Source: Nonlabens ponticola (GTDB lineage: Bacteria; Bacteroidota; Bacteroidia; Flavobacteriales; Flavobacteriaceae). From it: a stretch of DNA of 32,000 nucleotides. The stretch spans positions 1,920,001-1,952,000 of the forward strand of contig NZ_CP034549.1 in assembly GCF_003966335.1 (NCBI RefSeq), read 5' to 3'. Below, one piece after another: positions 2,020 through 31,182 of the stretch. Numbering within the stretch: position 1 is the stretch's first letter; each line of letters begins with the position of its first letter. The translations under genes and the position numbers were made by a program. Below the pieces are notes generated by a model. The model saw only the letters and a list, made by a program, of their open reading frames with translations. It had not been told where the DNA came from and made no database searches.

Positions 2020-3027
2020 ATGAAAGCAGCAAGATTTATGGAACAAGGTGGCGATCTACAGATCGTAGATGTGCCAAAACCAAGTCCAGAAAAAAACGAA
2101 ATACTTATTAAAGTACAAGCCTGTGGAATATGCCACAGCGATAATTTTGTCAAGCAAGGTGCCATGGGCAACGAGTTCCCGCGCACGCCAGGACATGAAG
2201 TTGTGGGAATAATTGAAGAGGTAGGCAGTGATTTAACCAGTCTAGAAAAAGGCCAGCGCGTGGGAATAGGATGGCATGGCGGTCATTGTTTTACTTGTGA
2301 TCCTTGTAGACGCGGTAAATTTATCAATTGTGAGAATGCAAAAATCTCTGGGATATCCTATGATGGCGGCTATGCAGAATATATGACCGCTCCATACGAG
2401 GCAGCAGCCATCGTTCCTGAGGATCTAAAGAGTACAGAAGCAGCGCCATTACTTTGTGCAGGAATCACCGTTTTTAATGGTATGCGCAATGCAGGATTGA
2501 GAGCTGGCGACACTGTTGCCGTTCAAGGAATAGGTGGTCTAGGTCACCTTGCCATTCAGTATGCTAATAAAATGGGAATGAAAACCATCGCGCTGAGTAC
2601 GACCGAGGATAAAAAGGATCTCGCCATGAAACTAGGCGCACATCACTTTATCGCCACTGATGATGTGGATGCGGTAGAAAAACTACAGGAATTAGGTGGC
2701 GCAGATCTCATCGTTGCCACCGCGCCTCATGCAGATGCCATATCGAGTGTCATTGATGGTCTAGGTATTGACGGTACGATGCTGTTAATCGCTGCGGCTG
2801 GTGATGATATAAAGGTGTCGCCATTGCAGTTATTACAAGCTCGTAAGAGCCTCAAAGGCTGGCCAAGTGGTGTCGCGCCTGATAGTGAAGACACGCTCAA
2901 TTTTAGCGCACGTACTGGTGCGTTACCAATGATTGAGGAATTTAAACTTGACGATGCTCATAAAGCCTTTGAAAAGATGATGAGTAATGAAACCAGATTT
3001 AGAGCAGTTTTAAATATGGAAATGTAG
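2020..3027 (+). CDS. Zinc-dependent alcohol dehydrogenase (MDR family)
   Basis: 335 aa with GICHSD, GHEVVGIIEEVG, the structural-zinc Cys cluster CFTCDPCRRGKFINC, and a GIGGLGH Rossmann motif. Confidence 0.85.
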   Translation: MKAARFMEQGGDLQIVDVPKPSPEKNEILIKVQACGICHSDNFVKQGAMGNEFPRTPGHEVVGIIEEVGSDLTSLEKGQRVGIGWHGGHCFTCDPCRRGKFINCENAKISGISYDGGYAEYMTAPYEAAAIVPEDLKSTEAAPLLCAGITVFNGMRNAGLRAGDTVAVQGIGGLGHLAIQYANKMGMKTIALSTTEDKKDLAMKLGAHHFIATDDVDAVEKLQELGGADLIVATAPHADAISSVIDGLGIDGTMLLIAAAGDDIKVSPLQLLQARKSLKGWPSGVAPDSEDTLNFSARTGALPMIEEFKLDDAHKAFEKMMSNETRFRAVLNMEM

Positions 3028-3050
3028 AGTTCTTGAGTTAGTGAAAATGA

Positions 3051-3084
3051 AAAACGCCCAGTGATTAAAATCATTGGGCGTTTT
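3051..3084. terminator. Bidirectional intrinsic terminator hairpin between convergent genes
   Basis: AAAACGCCCAGTGA-TTAAAA-TCATTGGGCGTTTT forms a 14-bp stem with one G.U pair. A/T runs on both sides give a U-tail on either strand. Confidence 0.7.
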
Positions 3085-3109
3085 AGTGTATTATGAAATC
3101 GCTACTATG

Positions 3110-5116
3110 CTATTCAACAACCACCTTAAAGCTGCGTACTGCATCTGCAAATTCAATTTTAACAATGTATATTCCAGCTTTTTCTACAATAAAGCTGTCG
3201 CCTAAGACTCTTTCTTTTTTGATCTGGCGTCCTGCAAGGTCATAAACTGTCACGGTTGGTTGTTGTATATCACCCTTGATGAAGAACAAACCAGTGCTTG
3301 AAGGATTAGGGTAGAGTAGTAGGTTGGCTAATACTTCATCACCAACGCTAGCAGTAGTTCCAAAAGTATGAGAGCCTAGATCATCAAACGTATTTATTGG
3401 GAATTCATTCCATTCCGCAGCTAGATTAAAAGAAACTGTTGGTCCTGTAACTTCTGGCTTGCGTACTAAGGTCACGTTTTGCGCAAAATCTGCACCACCG
3501 CCACCAAAGTTTCCTACTATGTCGATCAACTCATCATTTTTGAACAAGCCGACTGGATCATTACCATTAAAGTCTAATGCCGTGCCGCTGTTGACAAGAA
3601 CATCTGCCTCATCAGTTATTTCAGAATCCGCACCACTGTTGGCAATAACAAACACCTCACCATCAGCCAATGTGCCTGTTAGAGGCGTGTCGCTAGACCA
3701 ATTGCCACCACCATTGGTATCACGTTGCAAACTGTAATTTGATAGATCCACAGCTTCACCAGTGAAGTTGGCAATCTCAATCGCTTTATTTACACCACTG
3801 CCTTCAATGTATTCTGATATAAATAGTTCGGAGGACTCGGTAGAACCATCGCGTGCCTCTAGACTAACGACCGTTCTATCATCTGGAAACTCGTCATTAT
3901 CAGTATCTACGTTAGTATCATCATCCGGATCATCACTGATAGCCGTTACAATTTCTCCATCTAAGGTTTCCTCGCTATTTCCGGTCGCCGTTACCTGATT
4001 GCTTACACAGTTACACTCGCTATCAATGTCTTCTTGTGTAATAGAGTAGCGCAATATACCAGATGGAATCTCAGACGACAAGCCAGGAGCAAGACTTTCT
4101 AGGTTTTTAGGTTCTTCAAAGATACCTTTCTCTGCACCTACTGAAATTTGCCACACGGTACTGGTACCACGATTTGTAATTGTGTAGGTGTATTGTATTT
4201 CATCACCTACATTCACTTCATCATCATTATTCAAGTCTACATAAGTTCCTGATAATGTAACAGCGAGAATATTCGTCTCTTCTGGAGTTCCCCAAATTTG
4301 ATTCACGTATTGTGGTACATCTATGAAAGGATTGCGATTATTTTGATGTTCAAAAATCTCGTTGTTTCTATCAATCTCACGATCACTTACTGGATCTTCT
4401 GCATGCCATTTAAGTAGCAAATTAATGTACCAATCCTCATAAAATTGCCCTCTAGATCCATCACGTGGATCACGATCTACATTGGGACTATCCCAAGAAC
4501 TATCGTCAAATCGATCTTGGTATCTTGTAGCAAAGTATAATAATGATCTAGCTACATCACCTTTAAATTCATCGATGGGTTCAAAAGCGGTACCGCTATA
4601 TCCATCGACACTTGATGGACCACGCTTACTACCATTGCTAGAAGTATATTCTGGATTATTTACCTCACTAAAAGGCCAGCTACCGCGCGCACCGTTAACC
4701 GATCCATCGGTAGGCACTACGTGGTGAGCATCGCTGCGCATAGGCTCTTGACTATTGAATCGTCCTTGAGGAAAAATGTGCTCGCGATTATAGCAGGTAC
4801 CTTCTGCGCCTACATTACCACAGTTTTCTGAAAACTCATAATTATAAGGGTCTGGACCATCCGGATTTTCAGAATAGATATCAAGGATAGTATTGGTTTG
4901 TGTACCACCATCATAAAACTCGTCATTATCGCTTGTCTGATATAAAGTAAGCAGCGCATTATAGCTGCGACCATTGTATCCATCGCTTATGATTTGAGAT
5001 AATGCGGTTTTAAGTTCAAAGCCATCAAGACCTTGGGCGTCGTCGTAATAACCAGCTGGTGGTTGGGCCGTTGCCAGTGCGGCTAACAGCAGGAAGAATA
5101 AGGTAACATTTTTCAT
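3110..5116 (-). CDS. Secreted multidomain nuclease: Endonuclease I family domain, repeat domain, lamin-tail (LTD) domain and T9SS C-terminal sorting domain
   Basis: 668 aa with a signal peptide. Endonuclease-I-like motifs: YNREHIFPQ, DAHHVVPTDGSVNGARGSWPF, RNPFID. LTD-like block: ELFISEYIEGSGVNKAIEIANFTG...FVIAN. The C-terminus (LLLYPNPSSTGLFFIKGD...VTVYDLAGRQI...GIYIVKIE) is typical of the Por/T9SS tail. Confidence 0.8.
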   Translation of the reverse strand: MKNVTLFFLLLAALATAQPPAGYYDDAQGLDGFELKTALSQIISDGYNGRSYNALLTLYQTSDNDEFYDGGTQTNTILDIYSENPDGPDPYNYEFSENCGNVGAEGTCYNREHIFPQGRFNSQEPMRSDAHHVVPTDGSVNGARGSWPFSEVNNPEYTSSNGSKRGPSSVDGYSGTAFEPIDEFKGDVARSLLYFATRYQDRFDDSSWDSPNVDRDPRDGSRGQFYEDWYINLLLKWHAEDPVSDREIDRNNEIFEHQNNRNPFIDVPQYVNQIWGTPEETNILAVTLSGTYVDLNNDDEVNVGDEIQYTYTITNRGTSTVWQISVGAEKGIFEEPKNLESLAPGLSSEIPSGILRYSITQEDIDSECNCVSNQVTATGNSEETLDGEIVTAISDDPDDDTNVDTDNDEFPDDRTVVSLEARDGSTESSELFISEYIEGSGVNKAIEIANFTGEAVDLSNYSLQRDTNGGGNWSSDTPLTGTLADGEVFVIANSGADSEITDEADVLVNSGTALDFNGNDPVGLFKNDELIDIVGNFGGGGADFAQNVTLVRKPEVTGPTVSFNLAAEWNEFPINTFDDLGSHTFGTTASVGDEVLANLLLYPNPSSTGLFFIKGDIQQPTVTVYDLAGRQIKKERVLGDSFIVEKAGIYIVKIEFADAVRSFKVVVE

Positions 5117-27348: not shown

Positions 27349-28308
27349 ATGTTTCTTTTTGACACGATAACCGATACTAATTTTCAATTTCCAAAACAGC
27401 AGAAAGTCTATAAAGGCAAGGTGCGCGAGGTGTACACGCTAGAAGATGATTTGCTTGTTATGATTGCTAGCGATCGCTTGAGTGCCTTTGACGTCGTGAT
27501 GCCTAGAGGTATTCCTTTTAAAGGACAAATCCTTAATCAAATCGCGACCAAAATGATGGCCGCTACCTCAGACATTGTTCCCAATTGGCTTATCGCAACA
27601 CCAGATCCTAATGTTGCCATAGGTAACAACTGTGATCCATTCAAGGTAGAAATGGTGATACGTGGATATTTGAGTGGTCATGCAGCCAGAGAGTACAAAT
27701 CGGGTAAACGCGAGCTTTGTGGTGTTGCAATGCCTGATGGCATGAAGGAAAACGATAAGTTCCCACAACCAATTATAACACCAGCCACCAAAGCCGAAAT
27801 GGGCGATCATGATGAAGATATTTCACGCGAGGATATCCTTGCTCGTGGAATCGTATCTGCGGCAGACTATGAAGTTTTGGAAAACTATACACGAGCTCTT
27901 TTTGAAAGAGGCACCCAGCTAGCTGCAGATCGAGGCTTGATCTTAGTGGACACCAAATATGAATTTGGTAAAACCGCAGATGGTACCATCGTGCTTATTG
28001 ATGAGATCCATACACCAGATTCGTCTAGATATTTTTATGCTGATGGTTATCAAGAACGTCAAGATAACAATGAGGCACAAAAGCAATTGAGCAAAGAGTT
28101 TGTGCGTCAATGGTTGATTTCCAATGATTTTCAAGGCCTAGAAGGTCAACAAGTTCCAGAAATGAGTGATGAATATATCTTATCAGTAAGTGAACGCTAT
28201 ATTGAGCTTTACGAGAAAATTACCGGCGAGGAATTTCAAAAAGCAGACACCAATAATATACTGGATAGGATAGAAGCAAATGTTATGGAGTGGCTTAAGA
28301 CGAACTAG
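27349..28308 (+). CDS. purC: Phosphoribosylaminoimidazole-succinocarboxamide (SAICAR) synthase
   Basis: 319 aa. [41 protein letters not shown]. Confidence 0.9.
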
Positions 28309-28317
28309 TTATGTTTT

Positions 28318-28413
28318 AAATCTAAATCAAAGTCTAAATCAAAGTCTAAGTCTAAGTCTAAGTTGAAGTTGAAGTTTAATTACGACTTTTAGTCCAACTT
28401 GGAATTTAAGTCC
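28318..28413. repeat. Phased hexamer tandem repeat (AAGTCT-like, about 16 units)
   Basis: Units in phase: AAATCT AAATCA AAGTCT AAATCA AAGTCT AAGTCT AAGTCT AAGTTG AAGTTG AAGTTT AATTAC GACTTT TAGTCC AACTTG GAATTT AAGTCC. Confidence 0.85.
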
Positions 28414-28437
28414 CGTTGAAGTATAAAATCAAATAAA

Positions 28438-28602
28438 ACTGAGACTATAAGTTGCAACTACAAACTGTGACTAGAATACGACCGGAAACTGCGACTGATG
28501 ACTGTCAACTGCCAACTAAAACTGAGAACTCCAAACTGCAAAAGCAACTGTAAACTGTAAACTGCGACTGGAGACTGTTAACCGTCGACTGAAAACTCAA
28601 AC
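28438..28602. repeat. Degenerate 6-7 bp tandem repeat (ACTGNNN, about 22 units)
   Basis: ACT(G) starts at 28438, 444, 457, 464, 470, 481, 488, 494, 501, 508, 515, 521, 528, 535, 547, 554, 561, 567, 574, 581, 588 and 595. The spacing is mostly 7 and sometimes 6. Confidence 0.8.
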
Positions 28603-28603
28603 A

Positions 28604-28645
28604 CTATTGATACCCAGCGGCCTGCAGATTAAATAATCTAGAATA
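28604..28645 (-). pseudogene. Orphan duplicate of the last 13 codons plus stop of the ABC exporter gene
   Basis: 28608-28645 matches 29354-29391 at 37 of 38 positions. On the minus strand it reads YSRLFNLQAAGYQ*, identical to the exporter C-terminus; the differences are synonymous (GCC for GCT, CAA TAG for CAG TAA). Weaker similarity continues to about 28660. Confidence 0.85.
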
Positions 28646-28732
28646 AAATCGCAGTCAAATGCGTGTTACTCATTCATAAGTAAATCAACATTTTTATAGT
28701 ATTGCTATTTGATTTGGAACTAGTATCAAATT

Positions 28733-28754
28733 CCTTGCCTTAGATAAGGCGAGG
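28733..28754. repeat. Hairpin H1 (CCTTGCCTTA-GA-TAAGGCGAGG), downstream flank of the DUF559 gene
   Basis: 10-bp stem with one G.U pair. 17 of 22 positions are identical to H2 at 29309-29330, with a compensatory pair change. Confidence 0.7.
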
Positions 28755-28829
28755 ACAGAAGTAAAACTTGTTTTGCTTCAGGAGTGGTTGAATACTAATG
28801 CCTGAGAAAGATGGATCAGATTAATAATA

Positions 28830-29216
28830 TTACTCAATTTCCTTTTCTAGGATTCCACAATGCTTACGTATATCATTTAAAACATGAGGTAATTCAGAAA
28901 AAACATATTGATTTTCATATCTCAAAACGGTAAAACCATTTTTCCCTAGGTATAGATCTCGTAATTGATCTTTTTCTAACTGTTCAGGTTGATCATGACC
29001 TTCACCATCTAATTCAATAATCAAATTATGTTGAGCACAGTAGAAGTCAACGATATAATTTTTTATAGAGTGCTGTCTCCTAAATTTCAGTCCATCTAGC
29101 TTTTTTGAACCTAAGAAAGTCCACAAGTATGCTTCTGCTGGTGTGAGATTCTTGCGCAAACTCTTCCTGTATTTTTTGAGGTGCTTAAGGTTATGAGTTG
29201 GTGGATGTTTTTTCAC
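28830..29216 (-). CDS. DUF559 endonuclease-domain protein (Vsr/restriction-endonuclease-like fold)
   Basis: 128 aa. LTPAEAYLW..L....L.GLKFRRQHSIKNYIVDFYCAQHNLIIELDGEGHDQPEQLEKDQLRDLYLGKNGFTVLRYENQYVF is the typical DUF559 pattern. Confidence 0.85.
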   Translation of the reverse strand: MKKHPPTHNLKHLKKYRKSLRKNLTPAEAYLWTFLGSKKLDGLKFRRQHSIKNYIVDFYCAQHNLIIELDGEGHDQPEQLEKDQLRDLYLGKNGFTVLRYENQYVFSELPHVLNDIRKHCGILEKEIE

Positions 29217-29308
29217 AATAGAAAAATATCAATTTCAATCGTTATTACAAAAAATCGGGTTTTTCAACCTATCCGTCTCACAAACGGCTATCACCTTTTT
29301 GTGATCCA

Positions 29309-29330
29309 CCTTTCCTTAACTAAGGAAAGG
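29309..29330. repeat. Hairpin H2 (CCTTTCCTTA-AC-TAAGGAAAGG), between the ABC exporter stop and the DUF559 start
   Basis: Perfect 10-bp stem. It lies 19 nt beyond the exporter stop codon. Confidence 0.75.
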
Positions 29331-29349
29331 AGTTATTAAAAGAGTAATT

Positions 29350-31182
29350 TTACTGATACCCAGCAGCCTGCAGATTAAATAATCTAGAATACAACTGCGG
29401 ATTTTCCATGAGCTCCTCATGTGTTCCTATTTCAGCAATTTTGCCATCTTGTAGCACCAGAATACGATCTGCCATGCGCACGGTGGAGAAGCGGTGTGAT
29501 ATGATAATGCTAGTCTTGCCTTTTGTCAATCCAATAAATCGTTCAAAAACATCATATTCTGCCTGTGCATCTAGCGCGCTGGTAGGTTCATCCAGTACCA
29601 TGATGTCTGCATCCTTCATGTAGGCTCTTGCGAGCGCAACTTTTTGCCATTGTCCACCGCTTAACTCTTGACCTTTGGCAAATCTGCGTCCCAGTTGCTG
29701 GTCGATACCATCCATCATGGTTTCTATTACCTGATTGGCAAGACTGCGATCTGCTGCATCGAGAATCATGGGATCGTTAGAGATCTCGTCTATGTTTCCG
29801 ACGGCTATGTTTTCGCGCAAGCGGAATTCATATTTAAAGAAATCCTGAAAGATGACGCCAAAACGAGCACGATATTCTTCTTTACTAAAGCGATTGATGT
29901 TGATGCCGTCCAATAGTATTTCACCGCTTGTAGGTTTATAAAACCTAAGAATGAGTTTTATAAGCGTCGTTTTACCAGCGCCATTTTGACCTACAAAAGC
30001 GATTTTCTCACCTGCTTTGATTTCAAAGTTCACACCTTCTAGCACTGGTGTATCACTACCTGGGTAATTAAATCGAACGTCCTTGAGTTCAAAACCGGAT
30101 TTGATGACCTCAGGAATGGCAACAGGATTTTGAGTTTCTTGAGATAAAGGAATATCTAAGAAGTCAAAATAATCTCTCAAATACAGGGCGCTTTCTGAAA
30201 TGCGCGTAAAACGAGAGAAGAATTGCTGTAAGTTGTTGCGCAGTCTATTGAATGAACCTGATAAGAATGTCAATTCACCAATGGTGAGCACACCAGCGAT
30301 CACCTTAATTATGATAAAAATGTAAGCCCCATAATAAGACAGTGTCCCTAGAATATTGAAAAGAGAACCGTACAAGCTTTGTTTTAGTGATAGATTTTTA
30401 TTAATCAAATAATATTTATGGGACAGCTTACTGAAGCGTTGCGCGATATAATCAGTCAGGCCGAATAGTTTCACCTCTTTGGCAGTGGTATTATTTGCTC
30501 CTACATATCTCAAATAATCCAGCTCGCGACGCTCGGCAGTCCAGCTGCGTGCTAGGGAATATCGATGGCCGCTATATTTTGCCTCATTGATAAATGACGG
30601 TATGATACTGAGAACCAATAAAACTATAAGCCATGGTTCAAAATAGATGAGCGCGGCAATTAAGGAGACGATAGAAATGATAGCTTGCACTTGGCTCAGC
30701 GCATCACTCATCAGGTTTACACGACCATTGGTTTGCTGTCGCGCACGCTCAAGCTTATCATAGAACTCAGGATCTTCTAGTTGCTCAAGCGTTAACTCAT
30801 TTGTCTTGCGTATTATTTTTTCCGACGAGGCATTTGAGTATAGATCTCCTATCAATCCATCTGTTAGCGTGATGCCGCGATTAAGAATTTCTGTGAACAC
30901 AACAACACCTAATTCTATACCAACGAAAGTCCAAAGTCTGGTTAAATCCTGATTTTCTAGGCTTATTTGTAGGATAATCTCGTCAATGATGATCTTACCT
31001 ATCCACAAGGTAACCACCGGTGACAGCGCAGTGAGTAATCGTGCAAATGTGTTGAGCGTAAATAACTTCGGACTTACTCTCCAGATCTCCTTAAAAAATC
31101 GTGGTATCGCAGATAATGAGTCCAGTGAAAAGACTGATGTTTTTTTCTTATCTGTAATCGATTGTAATCGCGGTCTTGCCAT
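29350..31182 (-). CDS. ABC transporter, fused permease/ATP-binding protein (MsbA/multidrug exporter type)
   Basis: 610 aa with an N-terminal 6-TM domain. Walker A GQNGAGKTT, signature LSGGQWQ, Walker B IMVLDEPTSALD, H-loop ISHR. Confidence 0.9.
   Translation of the reverse strand: MARPRLQSITDKKKTSVFSLDSLSAIPRFFKEIWRVSPKLFTLNTFARLLTALSPVVTLWIGKIIIDEIILQISLENQDLTRLWTFVGIELGVVVFTEILNRGITLTDGLIGDLYSNASSEKIIRKTNELTLEQLEDPEFYDKLERARQQTNGRVNLMSDALSQVQAIISIVSLIAALIYFEPWLIVLLVLSIIPSFINEAKYSGHRYSLARSWTAERRELDYLRYVGANNTTAKEVKLFGLTDYIAQRFSKLSHKYYLINKNLSLKQSLYGSLFNILGTLSYYGAYIFIIIKVIAGVLTIGELTFLSGSFNRLRNNLQQFFSRFTRISESALYLRDYFDFLDIPLSQETQNPVAIPEVIKSGFELKDVRFNYPGSDTPVLEGVNFEIKAGEKIAFVGQNGAGKTTLIKLILRFYKPTSGEILLDGININRFSKEEYRARFGVIFQDFFKYEFRLRENIAVGNIDEISNDPMILDAADRSLANQVIETMMDGIDQQLGRRFAKGQELSGGQWQKVALARAYMKDADIMVLDEPTSALDAQAEYDVFERFIGLTKGKTSIIISHRFSTVRMADRILVLQDGKIAEIGTHEELMENPQLYSRLFNLQAAGYQ

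Follow-up and report, generated by a model that had tools for sequence, protein, structure and literature searches.

In a 32,000-nt stretch of the Nonlabens ponticola chromosome (NZ_CP034549.1, positions 1,920,001 to 1,952,000; hereafter the window, whose numbering we use throughout), the 3' end of an ABC exporter gene is present twice, once on each side of a small gene of the DUF559 family. The DUF559 gene is the core of a cassette with structured ends that recurs at other chromosomal sites in Nonlabens and is absent from the orthologous exporter loci that we compared. The best explanation of the locus, to which we give an even chance, is that the cassette was acquired on about 700 bp of foreign DNA that carried a replacement 3' end for the exporter gene, comparable to endonuclease open reading frames (ORFs) of fungal mitochondria. 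Of main interest is the cassette architecture around the DUF559 gene; the locus itself would be a variation on a known principle, a free-standing selfish endonuclease gene with a replacement gene end.

A repeat search of the window identified a direct repeat of 44 nt in two copies that are 93% identical and spaced 746 bp apart (Table 1). Within it, a 38-nt core (28608-28645 and 29354-29391) is identical at 37 positions (97.4%). A 39-mer pattern of the repeat, with up to 3 mismatches allowed, has exactly two occurrences in the window and matched in 0 of 100 shuffles; the repeat is thus neither a chance match nor, within the window, a common dispersed sequence, the latter being what an earlier note on this DNA had named as grounds for abandoning its view of the locus. 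Both copies translate to YSRLFNLQAAGYQ followed by a stop, and the right copy is the true exporter end, as that note had described for the repeat around a single DUF559 gene. No ORF lies upstream of the left copy, where an in-frame TGA stands four codons before its TAT (three codons intervene), again in agreement with the earlier description. The repeat has sharp edges. Its 3' edge coincides exactly with the stop codon, beyond which similarity is gone, and upstream of the block the identities per 10 nt are 3, 0, 2, 3 and so on. A shuffle test of the local alignment there (243 of 500) was at chance level, which disposes of the decay of similarity over about 15 nt that had been proposed; we likewise rejected a longer, decayed duplication upstream of the 44-nt block.

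The two copies differ at three positions (GCT/GCC, CAG/CAA and TAA/TAG), and all three differences are silent. Only 28 of the 126 possible single changes in the block are silent, so that three of three would have a probability of ~0.011 if changes were random. Because every difference is silent, both copies seem to have evolved as coding sequence, that is, as two alleles; the pattern looks like a comparison of two coding alleles and unlike a duplication that was made at insertion and left to drift. The orphan copy reads CAA TAG and in this agrees, at 2 of the 3 diagnostic sites, with the closest relatives, Nonlabens sp. Hel1_33_55 (locus L181, 90% identical protein) and Nonlabens antarcticus (L001, 88%). 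It also abuts short-period repeats similar to the ones found just after the exporter stop in L050, from another Nonlabens genome. These two weak pointers suggest that the orphan is the resident end. The left copy is therefore probably the displaced exporter 3' end of the recipient, and the right copy was probably imported along with the insert. Target duplication and a replacement 3' end had both been offered as origins of the repeat; the replacement end fits best with the stop-codon edge, the silent differences and the sites shared with relatives, and these speak against target duplication.

Table 1. Features of the exporter locus in the window, and sites of related cassettes in other genomes (loci fetched for comparison carry L numbers).
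Feature	Position	Strand	Description
purC (SAICAR synthetase), convergent neighbour	27349..28308	+	Pfam PF01259; far-side marker of the variable segment
Degenerate short tandem repeats, purC to orphan copy	28310..28603		Tandem Repeats Finder and repeat family; context, outside the cassette
Left repeat copy	28605..28648	-	Orphaned last 13 exporter codons and TAG stop
Stretch from cassette right end to orphan copy	28649..28725 (to 28727)		77-79 nt
Right-end module (RE)	28726..28791	+	Hairpin 1 28733-28754 CCTTGCCTTAGATAAGGCGAGG; hairpin 2 28758-28779; tail GGAGTGGTTGA 28781-28791
DUF559 gene, 128 aa, GTG start	28830..29216	-	Pfam PF04480; Vsr-like PD-(D/E)XK nuclease (predicted)
Left-end module (LE)	29264..29337	-	Hairpin 1 29330-29309 CCTTTCCTTAGTTAAGGAAAGG; hairpin 2 29304-29278; tail GACGGATAGGTTGA 29277-29264
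Spacer, exporter stop to cassette	29341..29349		9 nt, outside the conserved cassette; homology starts at 29340
Right repeat copy	29351..29394	-	Functional exporter terminus: last 13 codons and TAA stop
ABC exporter gene, 610 aa, intact	29350..31182	-	ORF list; Pfam ABC_tran and ABC_membrane
Cassette site after purL	L081, L088, L091		
Cassette site between M1 peptidase and acyl-CoA dehydrogenase genes	L082-L086, L178		
Cassette site near secA/doxX	L087		
Cassette site between MFS (major facilitator superfamily) gene and metallophosphoesterase gene	L089-L093		

The cassette measures about 613 bp (28728-29340), its bounds being the extent of blastn homology to other Nonlabens cassettes. Within it, two imperfect structured inverted repeats of about 70 nt each, the left-end (LE) and right-end (RE) modules, bracket the DUF559 ORF; the earlier statement that no inverted repeats are visible is therefore wrong for the cassette. 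LE folds as two hairpins (z = -5.15), scores 71 bits with a covariance model of the module (R1) and is 78% identical to the LE of the cassette in L081. RE, read on the + strand, is an inverted copy of the same architecture (fold z = -3.53; 55.8 bits with R1). Alignment of LE with reverse-complemented RE (alignment A2) gave the common order (a)gCT, hairpin 1, 4-5 nt, hairpin 2 and tail, with the tail consensus (C/A)GGA(A/G/T)(A/T)GGTTGA (GGAnnGGTTGA type). Hairpin 1 has 9-10 bp, and two of its positions covary between CCTTTCC and CCTCGCC types. Hairpin 2 is variable in sequence and always folds (z-scores of -3.5 to -6.8); its support comes from single-sequence folds, not from covariation, and MAFFT with RNAalifold could not align it.

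Both ends stand out within the window. The two similar GC-rich first hairpins, CCTTTCCTTAGTTAAGGAAAGG upstream of the gene and CCTCGCCTTATCTAAGGCAAGG downstream (28754-28733), are found nowhere else in it, and the tail motif GGANNGGTTGAA occurs exactly twice, on opposite strands on either side of the gene, against an expectation of 0.03. A terminator scan called none at the hairpin positions, Rfam scans of the window and 13 loci returned nothing above gathering scores, and the window holds no tandem repeat upstream of the DUF559 gene. The DNA between the cassette and the repeat copies is of another kind. The stretch at 28649-28727 had no blastn match in any fetched locus and no residual similarity to exporter coding sequence, and we take it to be co-transferred donor flank. 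For the 9-nt spacer on the other side, no homologue was found.

The module is not a general feature of flavobacterial DNA. R1 was trained only on Nonlabens modules, and matches were counted at a threshold of at least 22.7 bits. Apart from the two training modules, the window contains none, the next full-length match scoring 13 bits. Eighty flavobacterial exporter loci free of DUF559 genes (973 kb) gave 1 match, compared with 68 in 294 kb of independent DUF559 loci, a set made up of metagenomic loci with proteins 40-60% identical and of L178-L180. Sixty-six matches fell in loci that hold a DUF559 gene, 48 of them within 150 nt of the gene, and downstream modules were seen in both direct and inverted arrangement. 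On this evidence from sequence, the module is specific to DUF559 genes and general among them; we rejected generic terminators and dispersed REP-like (repetitive extragenic palindromic) repeats as explanations of the hairpins, which occur only beside DUF559 genes. The lone match in the DUF559-free loci (L014, 3650-3701, 26.9 bits) comes from a metagenome-assembled genome of an uncultured Marixanthomonas and may be a solo module without a nearby DUF559 gene.

Other Nonlabens genomes carry the closest homologues of the DUF559 gene, with proteins 62-73% identical and the same arrangement of gene and modules; in all, the cassette occupies at least five other chromosomal sites in the genus (main sites in Table 1). 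In Nonlabens sp. Ci31 and related metagenome contigs (L089-L097; e.g., L092, 1981-2840), the cassettes form head-to-tail arrays in which full DUF559 genes are interleaved with gene-less units; the gene-less mini-unit is 163-164 nt long and consists of a left module, about 45 nt and a right module. Up to three full DUF559 genes, 589 bp apart, are present in L094. The array at the purL locus (L091) and the array at the MFS locus (L089) are 93-95% identical and have unrelated flanks, which suggests that arrays have recently spread, or undergone gene conversion, from one site to another. Occupancy varies at the M1 peptidase locus: L082, L086 and L178 carry the cassette, L179 keeps only a solo scar, and L180 has unrelated genes in its place. 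L178 has the order right module, left module, gene, right module, left module. Nonlabens arenilitoris (L179) retains a single right-left pair, of which the 5' part matches the upstream copy of L178 and the expanded hairpin matches the downstream copy, as would be expected of recombination between flanking repeats with loss of the gene. Conserved ends, occupancy of several loci, gene-less derivatives and 93-95% identical copies at unrelated loci make the DUF559 cassettes look mobile, which accords with the mobility that the earlier note had thought possible for these genes.

Several smaller observations concern these arrays. Many assembly contigs end inside them. L087 contains tandem DUF559 genes (3001-3372 and 4548-4898) with runs of modules between. 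The upstream flanks in L158 and L161 retain the last 10 nt of another DUF559 gene, apparently left over from a tandem copy that was deleted. A nested palindromic insertion of 30-45 nt, e.g., CCCTGATAATTTGCtcatGCAAATTTCTGGG, occupies the hairpin 1 loop of some cassettes, in left-type and right-type modules alike (L082, 3859-3912 and 4480-4533; L087, ~2354-2420; L178, 5500-5560 and 5585-5645; L179, 4918-4970 and 5000-5052), as though through insertion of a smaller palindrome or exchange of sequence between the two ends.

We then considered whether the exporter repeat could be a product of the cassette itself. For 27 of 63 metagenomic DUF559 genes, comparison of the upstream 450 nt with the downstream 450 nt gave a direct repeat scoring at least 40 bits (95th percentile of the null, 28 bits). 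Of 19 such repeats that we inspected, all but one are visibly the hairpin module with its pyrimidine and purine arms; in two cases the repeat additionally takes in the 3' end of an adjacent DUF559 gene of a tandem. The flanking duplications and hairpins anticipated around other DUF559 genes were thus found in part: hairpin modules were present and about half of the genes had direct repeats, but the inspected repeats never contained a host gene 3' end. It is very unlikely that the 38-44-nt repeat is a target-site duplication, or a built-in replacement end, belonging to the cassette's own mobility mechanism, as had been supposed when it was read as a footprint of that mechanism. The nuclease gene does lie between the copies, and significant direct repeats flank most Nonlabens DUF559 genes as well as the metagenomic ones just described. 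Yet those that were inspected are hairpin modules or partial tandem units, and around the solitary cassettes of L081 and L088 no flanking repeat exceeds 9 nt. At the exporter, cassette homology stops at 29340 and at 28728, which leaves 9 and 79 nt of unrelated DNA before the repeat copies, and the silent-only differences also speak against a duplication made at insertion. Because of this non-cassette DNA, the lack of repeats at L081 and L088 and the lack of host-end duplication elsewhere, the repeat-bounded unit is larger than the mobile unit. From its sequence, it looks like a piece of donor chromosome composed of an exporter end, a spacer, the cassette and a downstream flank.

The DUF559 family comprises a very large number of small bacterial proteins and, to our knowledge, has no assigned function; in the literature on it we found nothing about mobility, flanking repeats or arrays. 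The protein encoded in the window is 100% identical to a N. ponticola protein on record. It matches the Pfam profile over positions 2-108 of 109 (115.2 bits, E = 1.7e-33; cut-off, 20.6 bits); its match to NCBIfam PRK09767 is below the cut-off (71.5 versus 218), and assignment as a YcjD equivalog was rejected. A profile built from 17 homologues matched 3hrl, a solved DUF559 protein (E = 5e-25), and the catalytic domain of I-Bth0305I (3r3p; E = 1.2e-4). When the AlphaFold2 model (pLDDT 80.6) was searched with Foldseek, the target-normalised TM-scores were 0.88 for 3hrl, 0.77 for I-Bth0305I and 0.49 for Vsr (1vsr, probability 0.99), and the predicted structure also matched PvuRts1I/AbaSI. The modeled protein therefore has a Vsr-like PD-(D/E)XK nuclease fold and is a predicted nuclease. 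Residues D57, E68, D70 and H74 are invariant across the 17 homologues and are candidate catalytic residues. PADLOC gave only weak partial matches (DpdF, mREase) and hence no defence-system assignment. A tblastn search of a phage collection returned no match, and matches to plasmids were all below 50% identity and mostly on chromids.

The exporter itself is well conserved. Full-length orthologues are 88-90% identical and have the same C-terminus, ending in LFNLQAAGYQ. The exact 610-aa product is absent from the protein collection (best match, 90%), though the DUF559 protein of the same genome is recorded there; perhaps the gene is publicly annotated with a different start or handled in some other way. 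Synteny from the exporter to purC-phoH is kept in N. antarcticus (L001), an uncultured Nonlabens (L002) and Nonlabens sp. Hel1_33_55 (L181), with differing content in the exporter-purC interval: proA-proB-proC in L001 (7983-10862) and L002 (7935-10801), and an ORF for a 183-aa membrane-protein-like product in L181 (6340-6891). N. ponticola has neither, and the window contains no remnants of the 183-aa ORF. No DUF559 gene lies beside the exporter in any of 81 orthologous loci (80 from other species and L181). As the cassette is absent from all of these, with their differing interval content, it is a lineage-specific gain in a variable interval. Entry of the cassette into the exporter site, as earlier proposed, is in this respect upheld; its description as fresh is doubtful, given a closest DUF559 protein of 73% identity and repeat copies that differ at 3 of 44 positions.

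The exporter-purC junction appears from these comparisons to be rearrangement-prone, and the duplication might have come about through a local rearrangement (proCBA or the 183-aa ORF being lost or replaced, illegitimate recombination, or slippage) that had nothing to do with the arrival of the cassette. We regard this as unlikely. It would suit an interval that is different in every Nonlabens genome examined, the ends of cassette and repeat that do not coincide, and the roughly 300 bp of unstable short tandem repeats at 28310-28603, which have periods of 6, 7, 12 and 18 nt and AACTG/AAGTC-type units. A duplication within the genome should however yield identical copies that drift at random, and what is observed is silent-only differences and an edge at the stop codon; moreover, the cassette is the only substantial content between the copies. 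In L050 (7784-8340), the exporter stop is directly followed by GAACTT/GAACCT hexamer runs within tandem units of about 120 nt that hold a GGGGTTTCGCCCC hairpin.

Integrase-borne islands typically have a direct repeat of about 40 nt across the 3' end of their target gene, which stays intact. The 44-nt copies could accordingly be attL and attR of a site-specific integrative element with a replacement end in its attP, an element either non-autonomous or since deprived of its integrase and most cargo by deletion, with the DUF559 cassette as leftover cargo. The repeat is of the right kind, ends at the stop codon and shows silent-only differences, and remnants of the island could account for the 9 and 79 nt of DNA outside the cassette. 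On the other hand, the copies enclose only about 700 bp, so that deletion must have removed everything else and yet spared both sites, and none of the 81 orthologous loci has an island at the exporter. There is also no recombinase gene in the examined part of the window: the DUF559 gene is the sole ORF between the repeats, and neither integrase nor transposase was present among the ORFs scanned at 16.8-27.2 kb, which are housekeeping genes, in keeping with the earlier observation. The region at 31.15-32.0 kb, covered by six-frame translation only and not by a profile scan, has one long ORF with a lipoprotein-like N-terminus. We consider an integrative element improbable, somewhat more so than local rearrangement.

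Acquisition of the cassette together with a replacement exporter end, which we prefer, could have proceeded as follows. The donor would have been a relative in which the cassette already lay just downstream of the orthologous exporter gene. The imported piece would have comprised the donor's last 13 exporter codons and stop, the 9-nt spacer, the cassette and 79 nt of donor flank. At one end, it would have been joined by homologous recombination inside the exporter gene, and at the other by illegitimate joining 13 codons before the resident stop. Such an outcome could arise through one-sided homologous recombination or through repair of a double-strand break, possibly one made by the nuclease itself. 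The imported 3' end would now terminate the exporter, and the resident end, 746 bp downstream, would be left as an untranslated orphan. The repeat, the anatomy of the cassette, its recurrence at other sites and its absence from orthologous loci are seen in the sequences; the donor, the sequence of steps and a part for the nuclease in cutting are inferred from them.

Several points weigh against this account. We found no donor, the cassette being next to the exporter in no other genome examined, and a scan of species-representative genomes and a search of 5.8 billion proteins yielded no conspecific empty site, the closest exporter being 90% identical. The closest other DUF559 protein is only 73% identical, and no recent transfer is traceable. 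The resident and imported copies cannot be assigned with confidence from agreement at 2 of 3 sites and one contextual resemblance. Finally, a host gene end is duplicated in none of the other inspected DUF559 loci, which would make such an acquisition a rare event for the family.

The closest parallels are mobile endonuclease ORFs (mORFs) of fungi. Endonuclease mORFs with C-terminal duplication have been described in atp6 of Allomyces macrogynus and in atp6, atp9, cox2 and nad3 of Glomus sp. (PMC3630166). Their architecture is an inserted C-terminal sequence, an endonuclease ORF and a remnant of the native C-terminal sequence, with silent differences, and has been explained by the element having been transferred along with a gene end of foreign origin (PMC3630166). 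The N. ponticola locus has the corresponding parts (a host core, an in-frame inserted C-terminal sequence, an endonuclease ORF and a displaced, untranslated native C-terminal sequence), and here too the differences are silent and the host gene is intact. The sign of co-transfer known from homing endonuclease genes and mORFs, an inserted and a displaced C-terminal copy, is present, with silent-only differences and a block that ends at the stop codon, and by analogy the locus would work like a fungal mORF insertion. The fungal elements are LAGLIDADG or GIY-YIG genes of organelle genomes and are often fused in frame to the host gene, whereas the N. ponticola gene is free-standing, lies in a bacterial chromosome and belongs to DUF559 (Vsr-like). 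A further difference is that its cassette has structured inverted-repeat ends of its own, with 9 and 79 nt of additional flanking DNA.

With respect to the enzyme, the nearest described relatives are EDxHD endonucleases of the I-Bth0305I and phage Hef type, which share the nuclease fold. The prototype of these Vsr-like EDxHD homing endonucleases, free-standing genes among them, is I-Bth0305I (PMC3239194). That enzyme is encoded in an intron and carries NUMOD DNA-binding repeats in its N-terminal part, where the 128-aa protein has no more than a short helical segment. The best match of the 128-aa protein is not I-Bth0305I but the DUF559 protein 3hrl, from a family without demonstrated function.

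The organization of the cassette recalls REP sequences and their associated RAYT (REP-associated tyrosine transposase) genes (REPtrons) and IS200/IS605 insertion sequences (IS), in which a small nuclease gene is flanked by inverted hairpin-forming repeats and gene-less hairpin units occur. Unlike these, the cassette encodes a PD-(D/E)XK nuclease rather than an HUH Y1 transposase; unlike REPtrons, its modules are not dispersed (1 match per 973 kb of DUF559-free DNA) and form head-to-tail tandem arrays beside the gene. We rejected the REPtron class on these two counts, no HUH Y1 transposase and no genome-wide hairpin dispersal in the searched DNA. An IS or transposon with target-site duplication was also rejected: there is no DDE or HUH domain, 9 and 79 nt separate the repeats from the inverted-repeat modules, and L081 and L088 have no flanking repeat. 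The locus resembles integrative elements at gene 3' ends (att sites in tRNA or protein genes), and cis-mobilizable remnants, in that a direct repeat of about 44 nt covers and preserves the gene end; its short repeat-bounded segment and the lack of a recombinase in the examined neighbourhood set it apart from that class. A type III toxin-antitoxin system (ToxIN-like) was rejected because the window has no tandem repeat upstream and the arrays elsewhere consist of units homologous to the gene's own flanks.

RE also resembles a known RNA motif. Aligned with the Rfam model of whalefall-1 (RF01762), it gave a full-length match (28723-28789, + strand) of 22.2 bits, below the gathering score of 37; none of the other cassettes matched. 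Like whalefall-1, RE on the + strand has two hairpins with a CUUG loop on the second, together with a GACAGA linker and a 3' tail rich in G. Whalefall-1 is an orphan metagenomic noncoding RNA motif for which no gene association has been described (PMC2864571), and we found nothing in the literature on mobility or gene association of the motif. It is so far known only from whale-fall metagenomes. By this sub-threshold resemblance, whalefall-1 may be a relative of the DUF559 cassette ends.

More tentatively, and with less than even confidence, we propose that this clade's DUF559 genes, each coding for a Vsr-like nuclease and bracketed by two-hairpin inverted-repeat ends that are possibly related to whalefall-1, represent the autonomous members of a class of selfish elements not yet described in bacteria. 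Such elements would multiply as head-to-tail arrays, spawn gene-less units, be lost through recombination that leaves solo scars and occasionally jump with neighbouring host sequence. The exporter locus would record one of these jumps and correspond, in a bacterium, to the C-terminal swap by fungal mORFs. If the account of the locus is true, the principle of an endonuclease ORF that brings a replacement gene end would extend from fungal mitochondria to bacterial chromosomes, and the orphan whalefall-1 motif would gain a possible genomic context. The locus in N. ponticola is a rare natural experiment, with two near-identical candidate targets that are separated by three silent differences, one of which may be cleavable and the other immune. 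For the DUF559 family, the conserved structured ends, tandem amplification, miniature derivatives and patchy occupancy of orthologous sites seen in this clade provide a concrete and testable context, that of a selfish nuclease element.

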